From Escherichia coli (GTDB taxonomy: Bacteria > Pseudomonadota > Gammaproteobacteria > Enterobacterales > Enterobacteriaceae), in assembly GCF_048403405.1 (NCBI RefSeq), contig NZ_CP183129.1: a stretch of 64,000 nucleotides of DNA; one strand, written 5' to 3'. The translations under genes and the position numbers were made by a program. The notes below the pieces were generated by a model, which made no database searches, was not told the DNA's origin, and saw only the letters and a list, made by a program, of their open reading frames with translations. Every line of letters begins with the position of its first letter. The first letter of the stretch is position 1. Positions 5,765 to 63,472 of this stretch are shown here, one piece after another.

Positions 5765-6973
5765 CGTCCGCGAAATTACCGACGCAATTACGCAGGCAAT
5801 CAATAAACCGGGGAGTAGCTGATACTCCCCGGTCATTTCACATATCATCAACGTCGACATAATCGGCGCGTGCGTGGTTGCCGCCAACAGTGTCGCCATC
5901 CCGGTCAATCCGAGTAAAAGCGTAATTTCTTCGCCATCAGGGAACCATAATCCCAGGCTACGACCATACAACATGCCAATGGCAAGACCGATAAATAGCG
6001 TCGGTGTAAAGACACCACCGGGCGCGCCAGAACCACTACTCGCCAGCACGGCAAACAGTTTACAGAGGAAGATCCCGGCAATGATCATTAACAGTGGCGG
6101 AGCGGTTAAAAAGGATTGTACGGTGCTATAGCCGTTGCCCCACACTGCAGGTGTGAACAGGGAAAGCAGACCCACGATCAACCCGCCCAGTGCCAGTTGC
6201 CAGGGCGGCGCAAGCTTGAGACTTACAAATTCACGATGACAGGCGTTCATCAACGTTAACAACAGTGGTCCGCACAGACCTGCCAGCACACCTGTACTGA
6301 TAATCAGCGCATAGTCACGAGCCTGAACCGTCACTGAGAGTTGTACACTGTAGAGTAACGCGTCGCTATGATTAATCAGATTGCTAACCAGCAATGCCAC
6401 GACGGCGGAAATAATCACCGGGCCGAGAGAGGCCAACATCATAGTGCCAAACAGCACTTCGGCTATAAATAAACTGCCAGCAAGCGGGGCGCGATAGGCC
6501 GCAGCCATTCCCGCCGCAGCTCCACAGGCGATCCATAATTTCCACTCCTGGCGTGGCGTAAAACGTTGGGCAAAACAGGAGGCGGCAAGGGCAGCTAAAA
6601 GAATCATCGCACCTTCGCGACCAATTGCACTGCCGCTGGTTACTACCAGCAGAGAGGCAAGGGATTTAACCAGGCTTGCTGCGTAATCAAACTGCCCATC
6701 GGTTTGCAACGCTTCCATGTAATCGGTCGGCGCATGAGGGCGTTGCTGGGTAAATTTCTGCCAGCCCATCAGCAACAAACCCGCCGCCAGTCCGCCGAGC
6801 GCCGGAGTTAGCAGCCGTCGCCAGGGGGAAAGATTTGTCGCTGCATTGACCAGACTGCCCGAGTCATTATTGAGGAACAACCACTCCAGTAGCAGCATTG
6901 CATGACGAAACCCGGCAACGGCAAAGGCCGCAAGAATACCGACGACTGTTGCGATAAGCAGACGGCGGAACAT
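5717..6973 (-). CDS. clcB: ClC-family voltage-gated chloride channel
   Basis: Polytopic membrane protein with ClC selectivity motifs (GSAIGREGA, GxFxP-type GVFTPT); 418 aa from the [12 protein letters not shown] start. Confidence 0.88.
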
Positions 6974-7166
6974 AGTGCGCAGATCCGGATAGATGTGTAG
7001 ATGATGCATGAGCAGAAATGGGCAATGAAATACGGGCGACTATTTTGCGGCAAAAGAAGCCAGACGCAAAAGCAGTGCGTGCTTTAAGAGATAAAAAACG
7101 TGACACTGTAACCTATTATTGCCGAATTGCGCCTAATCGACACCATCCGGCAATATTACGGTGATC

Positions 7167-7781
7167 CTATCGAAAGAGTGGTTTAACCGCGACAGGAATT
7201 AACAGTTGTGATTGCCATTGCGCCAGCGTTAAGCGAGCCAGTTCACCCAGTGCACGGTAGAAAGGGTGTTCTGCTTTTTCGATAAAAACGTCAAGAAAAC
7301 GTGTTGACCACGGAAAAAGGTGCCATGCCAGCAATTCTTCGCATTCTGTCTGGCGACCATTCTCCGCCAACCACGCAGCCATCAACAGCAGTGAACCAAA
7401 ATGATCTTCCGGTTCGTTTTGCTTCATTTCAAACTGAATGCCTTTCTCGCGCATCCACTGACGAAGTGCCAATGTTGAATCGCCAAACAGCACAGATTCG
7501 CGATCCAGCCAGACCGACCCCCACGGCGGTGATGGCAGAGCCCACGGACCGACAAACAAACGCTGCCAGGCCTGGGCGCGAGTCTCTTCACTCTGTGCCT
7601 GAAAAGCCGTCACCAGCGGCGCTAATGACGCTTCTGGTAGAGGCCACTGAGTTTCCCAGCCGTCACGGGTGAGTACCGCAACCAGAGGTGCGGCTTCCGC
7701 ACTCTCTGGAGCGTAATAAAACAGCGCGCCCAACACGCGCGCCGCGACAGAAAAATTATCTTGCTGTGAAAAATGGGTCAT
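7167..7781 (-). CDS. dmsD: Tat proofreading chaperone DmsD
   Basis: 204-aa TorD/DmsD-family protein directly downstream of the ynfEFGH operon. Confidence 0.88.
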   Translation of the reverse strand: MTHFSQQDNFSVAARVLGALFYYAPESAEAAPLVAVLTRDGWETQWPLPEASLAPLVTAFQAQSEETRAQAWQRLFVGPWALPSPPWGSVWLDRESVLFGDSTLALRQWMREKGIQFEMKQNEPEDHFGSLLLMAAWLAENGRQTECEELLAWHLFPWSTRFLDVFIEKAEHPFYRALGELARLTLAQWQSQLLIPVAVKPLFR

Positions 7782-7823
7782 TCCTAACATCCTGAAATGT
7801 GCGGGTTGCCCCGCACCAATTTG

Positions 7824-8678
7824 TTAACCTGCAATAGCCATTCCTACCGTCATGTGCAGGCCATAAAAGAGCACACGCCCGATCATCTCACCGCCAAGTA
7901 TGAGGATTAGCCCCAGAACAAGTCCGGCAACGTGAGGTTCACGGCGACGAATGAGCGGACAAAGCCAGCATCCTAGACCTGCGCATAACAATACCACACG
8001 CCAGACCTGTAAGGAGGCGTAATCTGGTACCAGTGCGCTGGCTTGTTGTACGGATGAGTGAATAGACGCCAGAGACAAACCTTGCAGCACAATCACCCCG
8101 GCACAAGCGATCAGCGCCAGAACGCTAATGATGGCAAAGGGTGTGGTATTAAATGTAATGCGGGCTGCCCGCAGAATTGCGGCAGCAAGTATTGGACCGC
8201 TCAACAATACTGTCAGGAAGAAAGCCAGCGTAGTGTAACCGTTATGCCAGGTTGGCACTGTGTCGATTTGATACACGCAGGTCATCATCCAGACGAAAAT
8301 GACGCCGAGCGCCATGCTGACAAGTAACCAGAGTTTCCCCAACGCTTGCGGCATTTTACCGATGACTGCCACCAGCCACCATAATCCGCCAACGGCAAAA
8401 AATATTGAACCGGCAGCAATTTCGTTACTCAGACCAGAAGCACCGATTCGATTCAGCGAGTTAAACGCTCGCAGTGGCGATCCCAGGTGCATGACAGAGG
8501 CAATAAACCCGATGCCCATCAACAGCCAGAGGAAAAACATGCCACGGACAATACGCTGACGGTCTGCGTCATTATTGGCGGCGAACCAGCCAATTCCGCT
8601 AACAATCAGCGCGCCTACTACGCATTGACCCAATACGGTAAAGATAACCAGTGGCCATTCATGCCATCCATTTCCCAT
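7824..8678 (-). CDS. ynfH: DMSO-reductase-type membrane anchor subunit
   Basis: 284-aa hydrophobic DmsC-like protein starting MGNGWHEWPLVIF; overlaps the ynfG stop. Confidence 0.88.
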   Translation of the reverse strand: MGNGWHEWPLVIFTVLGQCVVGALIVSGIGWFAANNDADRQRIVRGMFFLWLLMGIGFIASVMHLGSPLRAFNSLNRIGASGLSNEIAAGSIFFAVGGLWWLVAVIGKMPQALGKLWLLVSMALGVIFVWMMTCVYQIDTVPTWHNGYTTLAFFLTVLLSGPILAAAILRAARITFNTTPFAIISVLALIACAGVIVLQGLSLASIHSSVQQASALVPDYASLQVWRVVLLCAGLGCWLCPLIRRREPHVAGLVLGLILILGGEMIGRVLFYGLHMTVGMAIAG

Positions 8679-54398: not shown

Positions 54399-57850
<3,452 letters not shown>

Positions 57851-57917: not shown

Positions 57918-58517
57918 ATGCGTAAAGTTTGTGCAGCCATTTTGTCCGCAGCCATCTGTCTGTCCGTATCCGGTGCGCCTGCATGGGCATCTGAACATCA
58001 GTCCACGCTGAGCGCGGGGTATCTTCATGCCTCGACGAACGTTCCCGGCAGCGATGATCTTAACGGGATTAACGTGAAATACCGTTATGAGTTTACGGAC
58101 ACACTGGGGCTGGTGACGTCATTCAGCTATGCAGGAGACAAGAATCGCCAGCTTACCCGTTACAGCAATACCCGCTGGCATGAAGATTCCGTGCGTAACC
58201 GCTGGTTCAGCGTGATGGTGGGGCCGTCTGTGCGCGTGAATGAATGGTTCAGCGCGTATGCGATGGCGGGTATGGCTTACAGCCGTGTGTCGACCTTCTC
58301 CGGGGATTATCTCCGCGTAACTGACAACAAGGGGAAAACGCACGATGTGCTGACCGGAAGTGATGACGGTCGCCACAGCAACACGTCTCTGGCGTGGGGG
58401 GCTGGCGTGCAGTTTAACCCGACCGAATCCGTGGCCATTGACCTTGCTTATGAAGGTTCCGGCAGTGGTGACTGGCGCACTGACGGTTTCATCGTGGGTG
58501 TCGGTTATAAATTCTGA
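57918..58517 (+). CDS. lom: Ail/Lom-family outer-membrane protein
   Basis: Signal peptide [24 protein letters not shown]; beta-barrel repeats ending [10 protein letters not shown]. Confidence 0.88.
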
Positions 58518-58571: not shown

Positions 58572-58581
58572 TGGAGTGGAT

Positions 58582-60987
58582 ATGGCAGCAGTAAAAATCT
58601 CAGGTGTGCTGAAAGATGGTGCGGGAAAACCAATACAGAACTGCACTATTCAACTGAAGGCAAAGCGTAACAGCACCACGGTACTGGTGAACACGGTGGC
58701 CTCTGAAAATCCGGATGAAGCCGGGCGTTACAGCATGGATGTTGAGTATGGCCAGTACAGCGTTATCCTGCTTGTTGAAGGTTTTCCGCCTTCACATGCC
58801 GGAACCATTACCGTCTATGAAGGTTCCAGACCAGGTACGCTGAATGATTTTCTCGGTGCCATGACGGAAGATGATGTCATGCCGGAGGCATTGCGTCGTT
58901 TTGAGGAAATGGTGGAAGAAGCGGCACGCAACGCCGAAGCCGCCTCTCAGAGCGCAGCGGCGGCAAAGAAATCCGAAACTGCAGCGGCATCATCAAAGAA
59001 CGCGGCGAAAACCTCAGAAACGAATGCAGCTAATAGTGCACAGGCGGCAGCGACCTCAAAGACTGCATCGGCAAACTCCGCGACAGCAGCCAAAAAATCA
59101 GAAACCAACGCGAAAAATAGCGAGACAGCCGCAAAGACGAGCGAAACCAACGCAAAGTCCAGCCAGACGGCAGCGAAAACCAGCGAAACGAATGCCAAAG
59201 CCAGTGAAACTGCGGCAAAAAACAGCCAGGTTGCAGCAGCCCAAAGCGAGAGCGCGGCAGCCGGTTCTGCGACTTCAGCAGCTGGATCAGCAACTGCTGC
59301 GGCTAACAGCCAGAAAGCTGCGAAGACGAGTGAAACTAACGCAAAGTCCAGCCAGACGGCAGCGAAGACCAGCGAAACGAATGCCAAAGCCAGTGAAACT
59401 GCGGCGAAAAGCAGTCAGGATGCAGCGGCCCAAAGCGAGAGTGCCGCAGCCAGTTCTGCAAGCGCGGCGGCTGCTTCTGCCACTGCATCAGCTAACAGTC
59501 AAAAAGCAGCAAAAACCAGTGAAACCAACGCAAAGGCGAGCGAGACTGCGGCGGCGAACTCGGCGCAAGCATCGGCAGCAAGCCAGACAGCAGCTAAAGC
59601 AAGTGAAGACGCAGCCAGAGAGTATGCAAGCCAGGCAGCGGAGCCGTATAAACAAGTTTTGCAGCCGTTGCCCGATGTGTGGATACCGTTTAATGATTCA
59701 CTGGATATGATTACGGGCTTTTCGCCATCATATAAAAAAATTGTTATTGGCGACGATGAAATAACAATGCCTGGCGACAAGATTGTAAAGTTTAAACGCG
59801 CATCGAAAGCAACTTACATTAATAAATCTGGTGTGCTGACAGAGGCTGCCATTGACGAGCCACGATTTGAACGTGATGGCCTGCTTATTGAGGGGCAAAG
59901 AACTAACCTGCTAATCAATTCAACAAATCCGACTAAATGGAACAAGTCGTCAAATATGATCTTAAGTGCATCAGGTGTAGATGATTTCGGATTCCAGTAC
60001 GCAAAATTTACATTAAAACCAGAAATGGTAGGGCAAATTTCAGCGATTAACATAGTAACCGTTTCCGGCAGTAAAGGTTTTGATGTAACAGGCGGAGAAA
60101 AGTATGTAACCATATCATGCAGGGTGCAAAGTGGCACTCCAAATTTAAGATGCCGATTACGATTTGAAAACTATGATGGTTCTACCTACACATTCTTAGG
60201 TGACGCTTACTTAAATACGACAGATTTATCTATTGATAAGACGGGTGGTGCCGCTAATCGCATTACTGCAAGGGCTGTTAAAGATGAAGCAAGCAAATGG
60301 ATCTTTTTTGAGGCGACAATTAAGGCACTTGATACAGAAAATATGATAGGTGGAATGGTTCAGTATGCCCCGGCAAAAGGAGTGGGCACTGGCGCGGATG
60401 ATTATATTTATATTGCGACCCCTCAAGTTGAAGGTGGGGCGTGCGCTTCATCGTTTATTATAACAGGCGCATCCCCTGTAACACGCGCCAGCGATATTGT
60501 AACGGTCCCCATTTCTCTAAATTGGTGCAATCCCGCTATTAGTTCATTAGCAGAAGTTAATACCAATTGGGATGAATCGCCAAACAAAGAAGGTAGCGCA
60601 CGTATTCTTAATATTTCCACTACGGGAGATACAACTGAAATTGCAGATGAAAGTTATATGTATTTGGGGTATACATCTTTGGGAGCACGCGCAATCATTA
60701 CAAATGGTAAAGGCACTAAAATAGAATATAAAAGCGTTATAGAACGACCAGAGAGAAAAAGCATTATCGGCTTTAGATTCACAGAAAGTCGAGAATTGTG
60801 TGTTGTGGTTAACGGTAATATTGGTGCTAAGGTAGTTTCTCCTTATAAAAAACACAAATATACAGGAGGCTTCATTAATATTGGTGGTCAATCATCATCC
60901 GGCAACCGTCACCTATTTGGACACGTTCGAAATCTGCGTATTTGGCACAAGGCATTGACTGATGCTCAGATGGGGGAGTCAATCTAA
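58582..60987 (+). CDS. side tail fibre protein (lambda Stf-like N-terminus, Ala/Ser/Thr-rich repeat shaft, divergent AT-rich C-terminal receptor-binding region)
   Basis: N-terminus MAAVKISGVLKDGAGKPIQNCTIQLKAKRNSTT...; repeat shaft; C-terminal ~430 aa from an AT-rich segment ending ...GHVRNLRIWHKALTDAQMGESI (lectin/LamG-like ending). Confidence 0.85.
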   Translation: MAAVKISGVLKDGAGKPIQNCTIQLKAKRNSTTVLVNTVASENPDEAGRYSMDVEYGQYSVILLVEGFPPSHAGTITVYEGSRPGTLNDFLGAMTEDDVMPEALRRFEEMVEEAARNAEAASQSAAAAKKSETAAASSKNAAKTSETNAANSAQAAATSKTASANSATAAKKSETNAKNSETAAKTSETNAKSSQTAAKTSETNAKASETAAKNSQVAAAQSESAAAGSATSAAGSATAAANSQKAAKTSETNAKSSQTAAKTSETNAKASETAAKSSQDAAAQSESAAASSASAAAASATASANSQKAAKTSETNAKASETAAANSAQASAASQTAAKASEDAAREYASQAAEPYKQVLQPLPDVWIPFNDSLDMITGFSPSYKKIVIGDDEITMPGDKIVKFKRASKATYINKSGVLTEAAIDEPRFERDGLLIEGQRTNLLINSTNPTKWNKSSNMILSASGVDDFGFQYAKFTLKPEMVGQISAINIVTVSGSKGFDVTGGEKYVTISCRVQSGTPNLRCRLRFENYDGSTYTFLGDAYLNTTDLSIDKTGGAANRITARAVKDEASKWIFFEATIKALDTENMIGGMVQYAPAKGVGTGADDYIYIATPQVEGGACASSFIITGASPVTRASDIVTVPISLNWCNPAISSLAEVNTNWDESPNKEGSARILNISTTGDTTEIADESYMYLGYTSLGARAIITNGKGTKIEYKSVIERPERKSIIGFRFTESRELCVVVNGNIGAKVVSPYKKHKYTGGFINIGGQSSSGNRHLFGHVRNLRIWHKALTDAQMGESI
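59141..59518 (+). repeat. tandem direct repeat, 2 x 189 bp (63-aa unit), within the tail-fibre shaft region
   Basis: 59141-59329 and 59330-59518 are nearly identical (GAAAC-AACGCAAAGTCCAGCCAGACGGCAGCGAA-ACCAGCGAAACGAATGCCAAAGCCAGTGAAACTGCGGC...); a partial third copy follows. Confidence 0.8.
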
Positions 60988-61268
60988 TGAAAGATTTAAC
61001 ACTCAAATTTGCCGACAGGGCCGACTTTTCGGCCTTTATGGGAAGTATTGGCTATTATAATGACGAGTCGATGCAGGATGATATTCTGATTGATGTGATA
61101 GGTAACGTGTACAAAGAAACCGGAGAGCTGACTGAAGATGGCGAACCGGTATGTGTTAAGGAAGATGGATATTTTGTAAACGTGCGCATCATTAAGGATA
61201 CGCAAATATCGTCATTATTCGATGAATACGTGGTTGCTGTTGAGCATCAACTTCGTGGCTGGATGTGA
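60987..61268 (+). CDS. hypothetical protein (tail-fibre assembly chaperone position)
   Basis: 93-aa ORF overlapping the stf stop by 1 nt (TAATG); AT-rich. Confidence 0.45.
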   Translation: MKDLTLKFADRADFSAFMGSIGYYNDESMQDDILIDVIGNVYKETGELTEDGEPVCVKEDGYFVNVRIIKDTQISSLFDEYVVAVEHQLRGWM

Positions 61269-61277
61269 GGAAGAAAA

Positions 61278-62318
61278 ATGGCTACATCGACAGTAATTCC
61301 TGATGACATCAAAACGCTAAAATCCGACGTTAGCAAATTAAAAAACGATCAAGGAAGCTACGCAACAAAATTATATGTAGACAGCAAAGATGAAATCGTT
61401 GGTGACTGGTCTGCTTCATGGTATCAGCAGGTATTGCCAACTAGCGGAGCTATATTTGGGAGAAAACTCCGCTCAACTCACAGGACGGCAGGTGTTGAGG
61501 ATGCGTATTGCGAACTATACCTCAAAAAATGGATAGACAGTCCAGGTAACGCAATGGCGCGCCTTAACCTGAACGATAACGGGACAAACATTTGCTGGGA
61601 CTTTACCAACCTTTATGGCGGTACGATGATTTTTCCCGGTGACAGCGGATACCTCAAAATGGGTAACTGCCTTATGTCATACAGCAAGCGTGGAAGTAAC
61701 GCGCTTATTAAATTTGATTACACCGACACATTACAGATCAAATATGCCAATCATGGGTCAACCATGACATTAAACACACAGGGAACCGCTTATGCTGGTG
61801 TTACTGCTCAATTGTGGGGCAACTCCAGCCGTCCTGTTGTTTATGAAGTCGGTGTTGATGGTGGCGCTTATATGTTCTATGCGCAAAAAAATACCGATAA
61901 CACCTATATGTTAAGCGTTAATGGTGCATGTCATGCCACCGCATTTAACCAGCATTCCGACCGGGATCTGAAAGACAACATTCAGGTGATCGATAATGCA
62001 ACCGACCGCATCCGTAAAATGAACGGCTATACATACACGCTTAAAGAAAACGGTATGCCCTATGCTGGTGTCATTGCACAGGAAGCTCTGGAAGCAATCC
62101 CAGAAGTTGTAGGTTCCGCAATGAAATATCAGGACGGCGCAAGCGGATCGGAAGGTGAAGAAGGTGAACGTTATTACACAGTAGATTATTCTGGTGTTAC
62201 TGGCTTGCTTGTTCAGGTAGCCAGAGAGTCAGACGACAGAATAACAGCACTGGAAGAAGAAAACGCAGAATTAAGACAAAGATTATCTGCAATTGAGGCG
62301 GCGCTTGCGTCTAAATAA
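61278..62318 (+). CDS. second tail fibre / tail spike protein with C-terminal intramolecular chaperone (peptidase S74-like) domain
   Basis: 346 aa; C-terminus ...SDRDLKDNIQVIDNATDRIRKMNGYTYTLKEN...GVIAQEALEAIPEVV... plus a terminal coiled coil, typical of the auto-cleaving chaperone domain of phage fibres. Confidence 0.7.
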   Translation: MATSTVIPDDIKTLKSDVSKLKNDQGSYATKLYVDSKDEIVGDWSASWYQQVLPTSGAIFGRKLRSTHRTAGVEDAYCELYLKKWIDSPGNAMARLNLNDNGTNICWDFTNLYGGTMIFPGDSGYLKMGNCLMSYSKRGSNALIKFDYTDTLQIKYANHGSTMTLNTQGTAYAGVTAQLWGNSSRPVVYEVGVDGGAYMFYAQKNTDNTYMLSVNGACHATAFNQHSDRDLKDNIQVIDNATDRIRKMNGYTYTLKENGMPYAGVIAQEALEAIPEVVGSAMKYQDGASGSEGEEGERYYTVDYSGVTGLLVQVARESDDRITALEEENAELRQRLSAIEAALASK

Positions 62319-62324
62319 TATCAA

Positions 62325-62345
62325 GGGGCCGAGCGCCCCGTTTTA
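62325..62345 (+). terminator. intrinsic terminator after the second fibre gene
   Basis: GGGGCCGAGCGCCCCG followed by TTTTATT. Confidence 0.6.
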
Positions 62346-62354
62346 TTGGGTAGG

Positions 62355-62654
62355 ATGAAAATGGATATAACACCTTTCCTTCATGCGCTTTGTGCTGTGG
62401 CTGCGCAGCTACTGGTTGGTCTTTTTACCGGGAACTGGGCTTACGGGGCGATAGCCGGTTGTACGTTCTTCATTGCGCGTGAACACACCCAGGCGGAATA
62501 TCGCTGGATTGAAATGTTTGGGCATGGCAAGAGGATTAACATGCCGTGGTGGGGCGGTTTTGATCCGCGCGTGTGGGATGTGGCAAGCCTGATGGATTTT
62601 GCTGTGCCGGTGGTGGCGTGTCTGCTGGTCTGGCTGTTGGTTAATCGTGGGTGA
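62355..62654 (+). CDS. hypothetical small membrane protein
   Basis: About 100 aa with two hydrophobic helices (LHALCAVAAQLLVGLF, FAVPVVACLLVWLLV). Confidence 0.5.
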   Translation: MKMDITPFLHALCAVAAQLLVGLFTGNWAYGAIAGCTFFIAREHTQAEYRWIEMFGHGKRINMPWWGGFDPRVWDVASLMDFAVPVVACLLVWLLVNRG

Positions 62655-62881: not shown

Positions 62882-63472
62882 TTATATGTCAGGTGTCTGA
62901 AGTTTTGCTTTGGCTCTTAAAATGGTTTGCCGCGAGGTTTTGAATTCCCGGGCAATGGCACTTATACTTACACCTGACTTAATTCGTTCGAATACCACCT
63001 GTTTCTGTTCTTCATTTAACACAGGTGGTCGACCAAAACGTTTCCCTGCGCCCCGGGCTCTTACTATCCCGGAATGAGTGCGTTCAAGTAAAAGGTCTCG
63101 TTCAAATTCAGCGACTGCTGAAATTACTTGCATCATCATTTTTCCTGTTGGACTGGTCAGGTCAATGCCCCCCAATGCTAAGCAATGCACTCTGATACCT
63201 GTTTCGGTCAGTTGTTCCACTGTTTTCCTGATATCCATTGCATTACAACCAAGGCGATCCAGTTTTGTCACAATCAATTGATCACCACATTTCAGGCGAG
63301 CAAGCAACCGGTTAAAACCAGGACGCTCACTGGTTGCTGCTGAGCCGCTAATGTGTTCTTCGATTATTTGCTGAGGTTTGATTTTAAAACCTGCACTTTC
63401 GATTTCCCGGCGTTGATTTTCGGTGGTCTGATCCAGCGTTGATATCCGACAGTAAGCAAAAATTCGAGACAT
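62882..63472 (-). CDS. serine recombinase (DNA invertase/resolvase family)
   Basis: 196 aa; N-terminal catalytic motif YCRISTLDQ; C-terminal HTH; adjacent to the tail-fibre genes. Confidence 0.85.

Follow-up and report, generated by a model that had tools for sequence, protein, structure and literature searches.

In the window, by which we mean the whole 64,000-nucleotide stretch of Escherichia coli DNA analyzed here, the shaft of a lambda Stf-type side tail fibre is encoded in part by two adjacent 189-bp units. The units lie in frame and each specifies 63 amino acids, exactly nine heptads. They very probably go back to an old, now fixed tandem duplication in the proximal coiled-coil shaft of a lambdoid-prophage fibre, which lengthened the shaft while keeping its heptad register. 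The fibre gene, its neighbors and the parts of its repeat region are arranged as follows:

about 54411-57850, plus strand: J-type central fibre gene, upstream of lom
57918-58517, plus strand: lom (Ail/Lom; PF06316, 400 bits), between J and the fibre gene
58582-60987, plus strand: lambda Stf-like side-tail-fibre gene, assigned from its ORF, PF08400, PHROG 1419 and its position after J and lom
58588-58866, plus strand: N-terminal collar domain, the anchor of the fibre to the tail tip, assigned from a match to PDB 9e7m/9mgh
58897-59646, plus strand: unbroken heptad array, aa ~108-357, about 35 heptads, from its layout in sevens, Fourier analysis and AlphaFold2
59128-59316, plus strand: copy 1 of the 189-bp, 63-aa, nine-heptad unit in the heptad-aligned phase (59141-59329 in the sequence-only reading)
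59317-59505, plus strand: copy 2 of the 189-bp unit in the heptad-aligned phase (59330-59518 in the sequence-only reading)
59506-59553, plus strand: partial third copy comprising the unit's first two heptads (AAKTSET NAKASET), from the 2.3 copies reported by Tandem Repeats Finder and the heptad layout
59647-60984, plus strand: C-terminal, presumed receptor-binding half, mosaic, from NF048003, PHROG 5939 and coliphage matches
within 60987-62654: 93-aa ORF (phrog_1361, function unknown), with no Pfam or NCBIfam match
61278-62318: 346-aa tail-fibre protein ending in a Peptidase_S74 intramolecular-chaperone domain
within 60987-62654: 102-aa ORF (phrog_1443, function unknown), with no Pfam or NCBIfam match

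Both the domain makeup and the neighborhood identify the gene. The program-called ORF opens at a GTG at 58576 (803 aa); the ATG at 58582 (801 aa), which is annotated in related phages, is likely the start codon. The N-terminus of the protein is a PF08400 domain ('prophage tail fibre N-terminal'; E=6e-67, 224 bits, cutoff 26.6), and residues 5-97 match residues 2-94 of the 'Tail fiber protein' in PDB 9e7m/9mgh (E=1.6e-49). In Ur-lambda, this collar domain is gpStfN and sits on the gpV/gpM junction (PMC12617516). The similarity extends further: lambda orf-401, the N-terminal part of Stf, is 61% identical to the fibre protein over 285 aa, and the PHROG 1419 'tail protein' profile (793 positions) covers residues 4-803, end to end. 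The order J-lom-fibre gene is also annotated in EcPNK004, 2G7b, IdasGreatGrand and lambda. The sequence-only reading had assigned the repeat to a prophage tail-fibre shaft, and J and lom upstream, the PF08400/lambda Stf collar domain and the heptad array all bear this out. This side tail fibre is common in E. coli prophages, and public databases already contain it in abundance.

Laid out in sevens, the array follows the consensus [A/N]-A-[K/A]-x-S-[E/Q/A]-T (type A-A-K-x-S-E-T) with no break in register. Across 36 frames, position 2 is Ala in 32, position 3 Lys or Ala in 33, position 5 Ser in 32, position 6 Glu, Gln or Ala in 32 and position 7 Thr in 20, and Fourier analysis of the array sequence peaks at 7.0 and 3.5 residues. 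The near-invariant Ala and Ser, with their 3-4 spacing, fit the core positions a and d, to which we presume they correspond. We modeled the monomer with AlphaFold2 without an alignment and used the model, which has a mean pLDDT of 66 and a pTM of 0.27, for secondary structure only. It shows helices at residues 100-226 and 235-357 (pLDDT 72-89) and a poorly modeled N-terminal domain. The helices are separated by a low-confidence break at residues 227-234, located at the Gly-containing heptads that end copy 1, and this break is probably an artefact of the monomer folding back on itself.

In the Ur-lambda particle, cryo-EM and cryo-ET show Stf as a trimer with a collar (residues 1-91), a flexible linker (92-101) and a proximal coiled coil (102-393) (PMC12617516). 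The heptad array aligns in register with this proximal coiled-coil segment. Homology, periodicity and the monomer model together thus point to a trimeric alpha-helical coiled coil. At 0.148 nm per residue, the 250-residue array would form a rod of about 37 nm, of which the duplication would account for about 9.3 nm (63 x 0.148 nm). A unit made up of complete heptads leaves the coiled-coil register intact.

A smaller duplication lies inside copy 1. Its 3' part (~59254-59295, aa 227-240) contains the mini-duplicated Gly heptads AAAGSAT SAAGSAT, which are absent from copy 2 and coincide with the sole low-confidence break of the predicted helix. Judged from the model, these heptads could form a flexible point in the shaft.

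Two further ORFs overlap the array, one in an alternative frame (58871-59710, plus strand, 279 aa, Arg/Gln-rich) and one antisense (58947-59387, minus strand, 146 aa, Ala/Phe/Val-rich). We rejected both as genes; most likely, both arise incidentally from the periodic, GCN-rich coding sequence. In lambda, a comparable antisense frame, orf206b, is annotated within stf.

Tandem Repeats Finder reports the repeat at 59119-59553, with a period of 189, 2.3 copies, 83% matches and zero indels. Together with direct comparison, it confirms the positions that the sequence-only reading had given for the two units, as well as the longer region of degenerate repeats around them, in which nested 21- and 42-nt periods are detected in and around the 189-nt array. 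The description of the units as near-perfect or almost identical did not hold: in that phase only 159 of 189 positions match (84.1%), and in the best phase (59128/59317) the count rises to 161 of 189 (85%). At the protein level 56 of 63 residues are the same, and the codon differences divide into 17 synonymous and 7 non-synonymous ones. Similarity is unevenly distributed along the unit, with 99 matches in the first 108 nt and 62 in the remaining 81 nt; no exact in-register match between the copies is longer than the 38 nt at 59179-59216.

As a control for the heptad background, we put the array's 34 heptads into random order 500 times and scored the best 189-nt self-match of each shuffled array. 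These matches averaged 115 positions (sd 4.1) and reached at most 131, compared with 161 in the actual array. The duplication is thus real and stands well above the array's own repetitiveness.

To date the duplication relative to the lineages that carry it, we aligned nine alleles copy by copy. Copy 1 matches its counterparts in six other genomes and phages at 94-100% identity, with the RIVM_C036569 allele as the exception (65-68%), and copy 2 units are 92-100% identical among the aligned alleles. Comparing copy 1 with copy 2 in the standard alleles invariably gives 83-87% identity. This pattern, in which each copy is conserved across lineages at a level that the two copies do not share with one another, indicates that the duplication predates the divergence of the lineages and that the copies have not evolved in concert. 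On the sequence comparisons, among them the predominance of synonymous codon differences between the copies (17 against 7), the duplication is old, fixed and not undergoing homogenization. It would have originated by unequal recombination or replication slippage between heptad repeats, and its sole functional effect would be on the length or reach of the fibre. Our literature search on heptad duplications in tail fibres found no relevant report.

The two-copy length is the ordinary one. Among the matches listed, all 40 complete E. coli genomes carry the full 2,412-nt gene at unchanged length and 99.2-99.7% identity, and of 5,426 complete E. coli genomes, 967 match the 901-nt repeat region over at least 80% of its length. 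From the region matches that cover at least 97% of the query we sampled 27 at even spacing, of which 26 lack a net indel; the exception, ATCC 43886, is one heptad (21 nt) short. Six independently sequenced phages (2G7b, Tritos, HannyBb, ev207, PhiR49_1 and PhiR63_1) have arrays of identical length, with two copies and 95-97% nucleotide identity across the array; they differ from the array in the window by point substitutions only, and their C-terminal parts diverge past gene nt ~1300. These counts dispose of the earlier suspicion that the repeat marks a site of assembly collapse. Such an artefact, with the repeat mis-expanded or mis-collapsed, could be suspected from the repetitive, low-complexity sequence, from the many database relatives that are labeled 'partial' and cut at contig ends, and from odd lengths in some singleton variants of draft assemblies. 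However, dozens of the listed complete genomes and the six phages, from different laboratories, share both the length and the copy-specific sequence; the copies differ at 28-30 of 189 positions and have no exact run longer than 38 nt, so that reads and the usual k-mers separate them; and the contigs of the partial relatives break at aa ~480-630, downstream of the repeat. We found neither exact repeats longer than reads or k-mers nor a copy number that is inconsistent between assemblies. The artefact explanation is effectively refuted, and the two-copy form is ordinary rather than misassembled.

Length variants do exist, and they bear on whether the array is an actively variable length switch, in which frequent unequal recombination would alter the length of the fibre and the polymorphism would be kept up by selection on how far the fibre reaches through O-antigen or capsule. 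Phage IdasGreatGrand has exactly 189 nt (63 aa) fewer, with a single unit of the copy-2 type, and a one-copy query retrieved single-piece matches of 712 nt in the complete genomes CB209 and MSB1_4I, as well as an EFF60 allele that is 84 nt (4 heptads) shorter. CB209 (NZ_CM144249.1) carries a one-copy allele (1328802-1329513) and a two-copy allele (1526251-1527151) in separate prophages. With the allele that is one heptad short, these cases are what a switch would produce, and the first 108 nt of the units, at 92% identity and with exact runs of 29 and 38 nt, are similar enough for occasional homologous exchange. Yet two copies are by far the prevailing state, identity over the whole unit is only 84%, and copy-specific substitutions are common to the lineages, with no sign of homogenization. 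Nor did a three-copy allele appear, either among 120 protein clusters or among the 60 best matches in complete E. coli genomes to a synthetic 1-1-2 query with flanks; all 60 span 901 nt (two copies), and alleles below ~95% identity would rank lower in this search and may be missed. The near-identical units, varying in number among close relatives, of a hypervariable contingency-type locus are not what we see here. We therefore regard an active switch as very unlikely. Of the earlier proposal that the repeats allow length variation by unequal recombination, the part that stands is the existence of whole-unit and whole-heptad variants; these are real but rare, and the conservation of copy-specific differences argues against ongoing switching. 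The comparison across related prophages that the sequence-only reading had suggested accordingly yields a dominant two-copy form and rare shorter alleles. Under the reading we prefer, an old and fixed duplication, the shorter alleles would be rare later unequal exchanges or deletions, and the one-copy form may be either ancestral or a secondary deletion.

The anchor-to-anchor lengths of the 120 protein clusters describe the same variation at the protein level. Lengths of 272 (45 entries, including the protein in the window), 259 (58 entries, in which the C-terminal junction differs) and 209 (7 entries, equivalent to -63) are accompanied by singletons or pairs at -7, -14 and -28 aa. A few variants of -4, -5, -12, -30 and -41 aa, all from draft assemblies, are not multiples of seven; they may reflect either genuine stutter-like discontinuities or mistakes in assembly. 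They are not what a strict constraint on register predicts, and to that extent they count against the explanation we favor.

A different role for the array is suggested by the mosaic structure of the gene. Phages are well known to swap fibre tips across conserved stretches of the shaft, and the mosaicism of the array fits such modular exchange. The similarity of relatives breaks off at several points within the array (window ~59051, 59066, 59208 and 59472) and at its end, 59628. From there onward, gene nt 1053-1928 (window 59628-60503) are ~86% identical to the tail-fibre genes of the non-lambdoid coliphages tuinn, swan01, JLBYU10, KurtStettler and BUCT632. In RIVM_C036569, copy 1 is swapped for the 65-68%-identical sequence, which is still exactly 189 nt long. 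Engineered chimeras of the lambda Stf N-terminus with a foreign C-terminus are functional (PMC11338833). These observations would suit an array that serves mainly as conserved DNA for exchanging C-terminal receptor-binding modules, with the duplication as a by-product, and we consider this possible but doubtful as the main account: it explains the mosaicism of the gene, but not a nine-heptad duplication that was then kept unchanged. Rather than excluding an old, fixed duplication, module exchange is compatible with it.

Selection on shaft length itself is unlikely, in our estimate, although it would give the duplication a function, with a nine-heptad (~9 nm) step tuning how far the side fibre reaches compared with the central J fibre or with the depth of the O-antigen or capsule layer. 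The idea derives from the RIVM_C036569 allele, which keeps 189 nt despite its replaced copy 1, and from the fact that most length variants are whole heptads. If it is true, the one- and two-copy alleles are functionally distinct adsorption variants. In either case, the natural one- and two-copy alleles are a ready pair for testing the effect of ~9 nm of fibre length on adsorption, and the pair may interest engineers of lambda-type particles with chimeric Stf fibres. Beyond this, the duplication has little significance other than for annotation hygiene, as Stf-type heptad coiled-coil shafts have already been described structurally.

Comparison with known fibres places the shaft in the Stf family. 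Stf of (Ur-)lambda (PDB 9e7m/9mgh; PMC12617516) is encoded at the same place after J and lom and has a near-identical collar that is likewise followed by a long Ala/Ser/Thr/Lys/Glu heptad array, of about 290 aa compared with about 250 aa here. By contrast, lambda Stf lacks the nine-heptad duplication in the form found here, and the distal halves are unrelated, with a gp37-like part in lambda Stf and an NF048003 spike-fibre domain here. The tail protein of IdasGreatGrand (PP925829.1) belongs to the same family, at about 90% nucleotide identity over 80% of the gene, and its single unit resembles copy 2 (94-97% identical) more closely than copy 1 (85-86%). Klebsiella phage depolymerases (DpK2, PDB 7LZJ; 7VZ3 and 7VYV) contain short AKTSE / NAKSS heptad stretches that match at E about 2e-3 (for DpK2, a weak E=0.0017). 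Their N-terminal triple-helical bundle, which in DpK2 was seen at low resolution and without an atomic model (PMC8552709), is much shorter than the array and precedes a beta-helix enzyme rather than a fibre tip.

Downstream of the shaft, the NCBIfam domain NF048003 ('phage head spike fiber') spans aa 435-636 of the fibre and PHROG 5939 matches aa 370-801. Pfam, NCBIfam and PHROG searches of the ORFs downstream of the fibre gene found no Tfa-type chaperone gene, a difference from lambda that bears on the distal module and leaves the shaft untouched. Instead, the gene is followed by the 93-aa ORF and the 346-aa S74-domain fibre protein, and the gene order downstream of the fibre is identical in phage 2G7b. 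This S74-bearing set suggests a second, possibly branched, fibre component.

In RefSeq, the fibre gene is incomplete, a pseudogene or split in EcPNK004 (locus positions 6007-8010), EC17GD31 and CE10, despite full-length DNA alignment; the alignment of the EcPNK004 gene is 99.7% identical and gapless. These incomplete annotations may come from frameshifts or from truncation of annotation models in the repetitive region.

The J gene of the window is 3,395 nt long (54456-57850) and has one C fewer in a C-run at ~57470, which reads TTTCCCCGGG; in the intact gpJ gene of EcPNK004 (3,396 nt), the run reads TTTCCCCCGGG. As a result of this single-nucleotide loss, the J frame stops at 57632. The coding sequence for the receptor-binding C-terminus, the final ~125 codons, continues in a different frame (ORF 57569-57850). 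Either the homopolymer was misread in sequencing or the frameshift is genuine and inactivating, and in the latter case the prophage would be defective.

On the far side of the fibre genes, a serine recombinase/DNA invertase (Resolvase and HTH_7 domains; 62882-63472, minus strand) corresponds to pinQ of the Qin region. In comparison with EcPNK004, the sequence beyond pinQ continues with ydfK, ynfT and a truncated ydfJ. The prophage thus adjoins the Qin region and borders Qin-remnant DNA.
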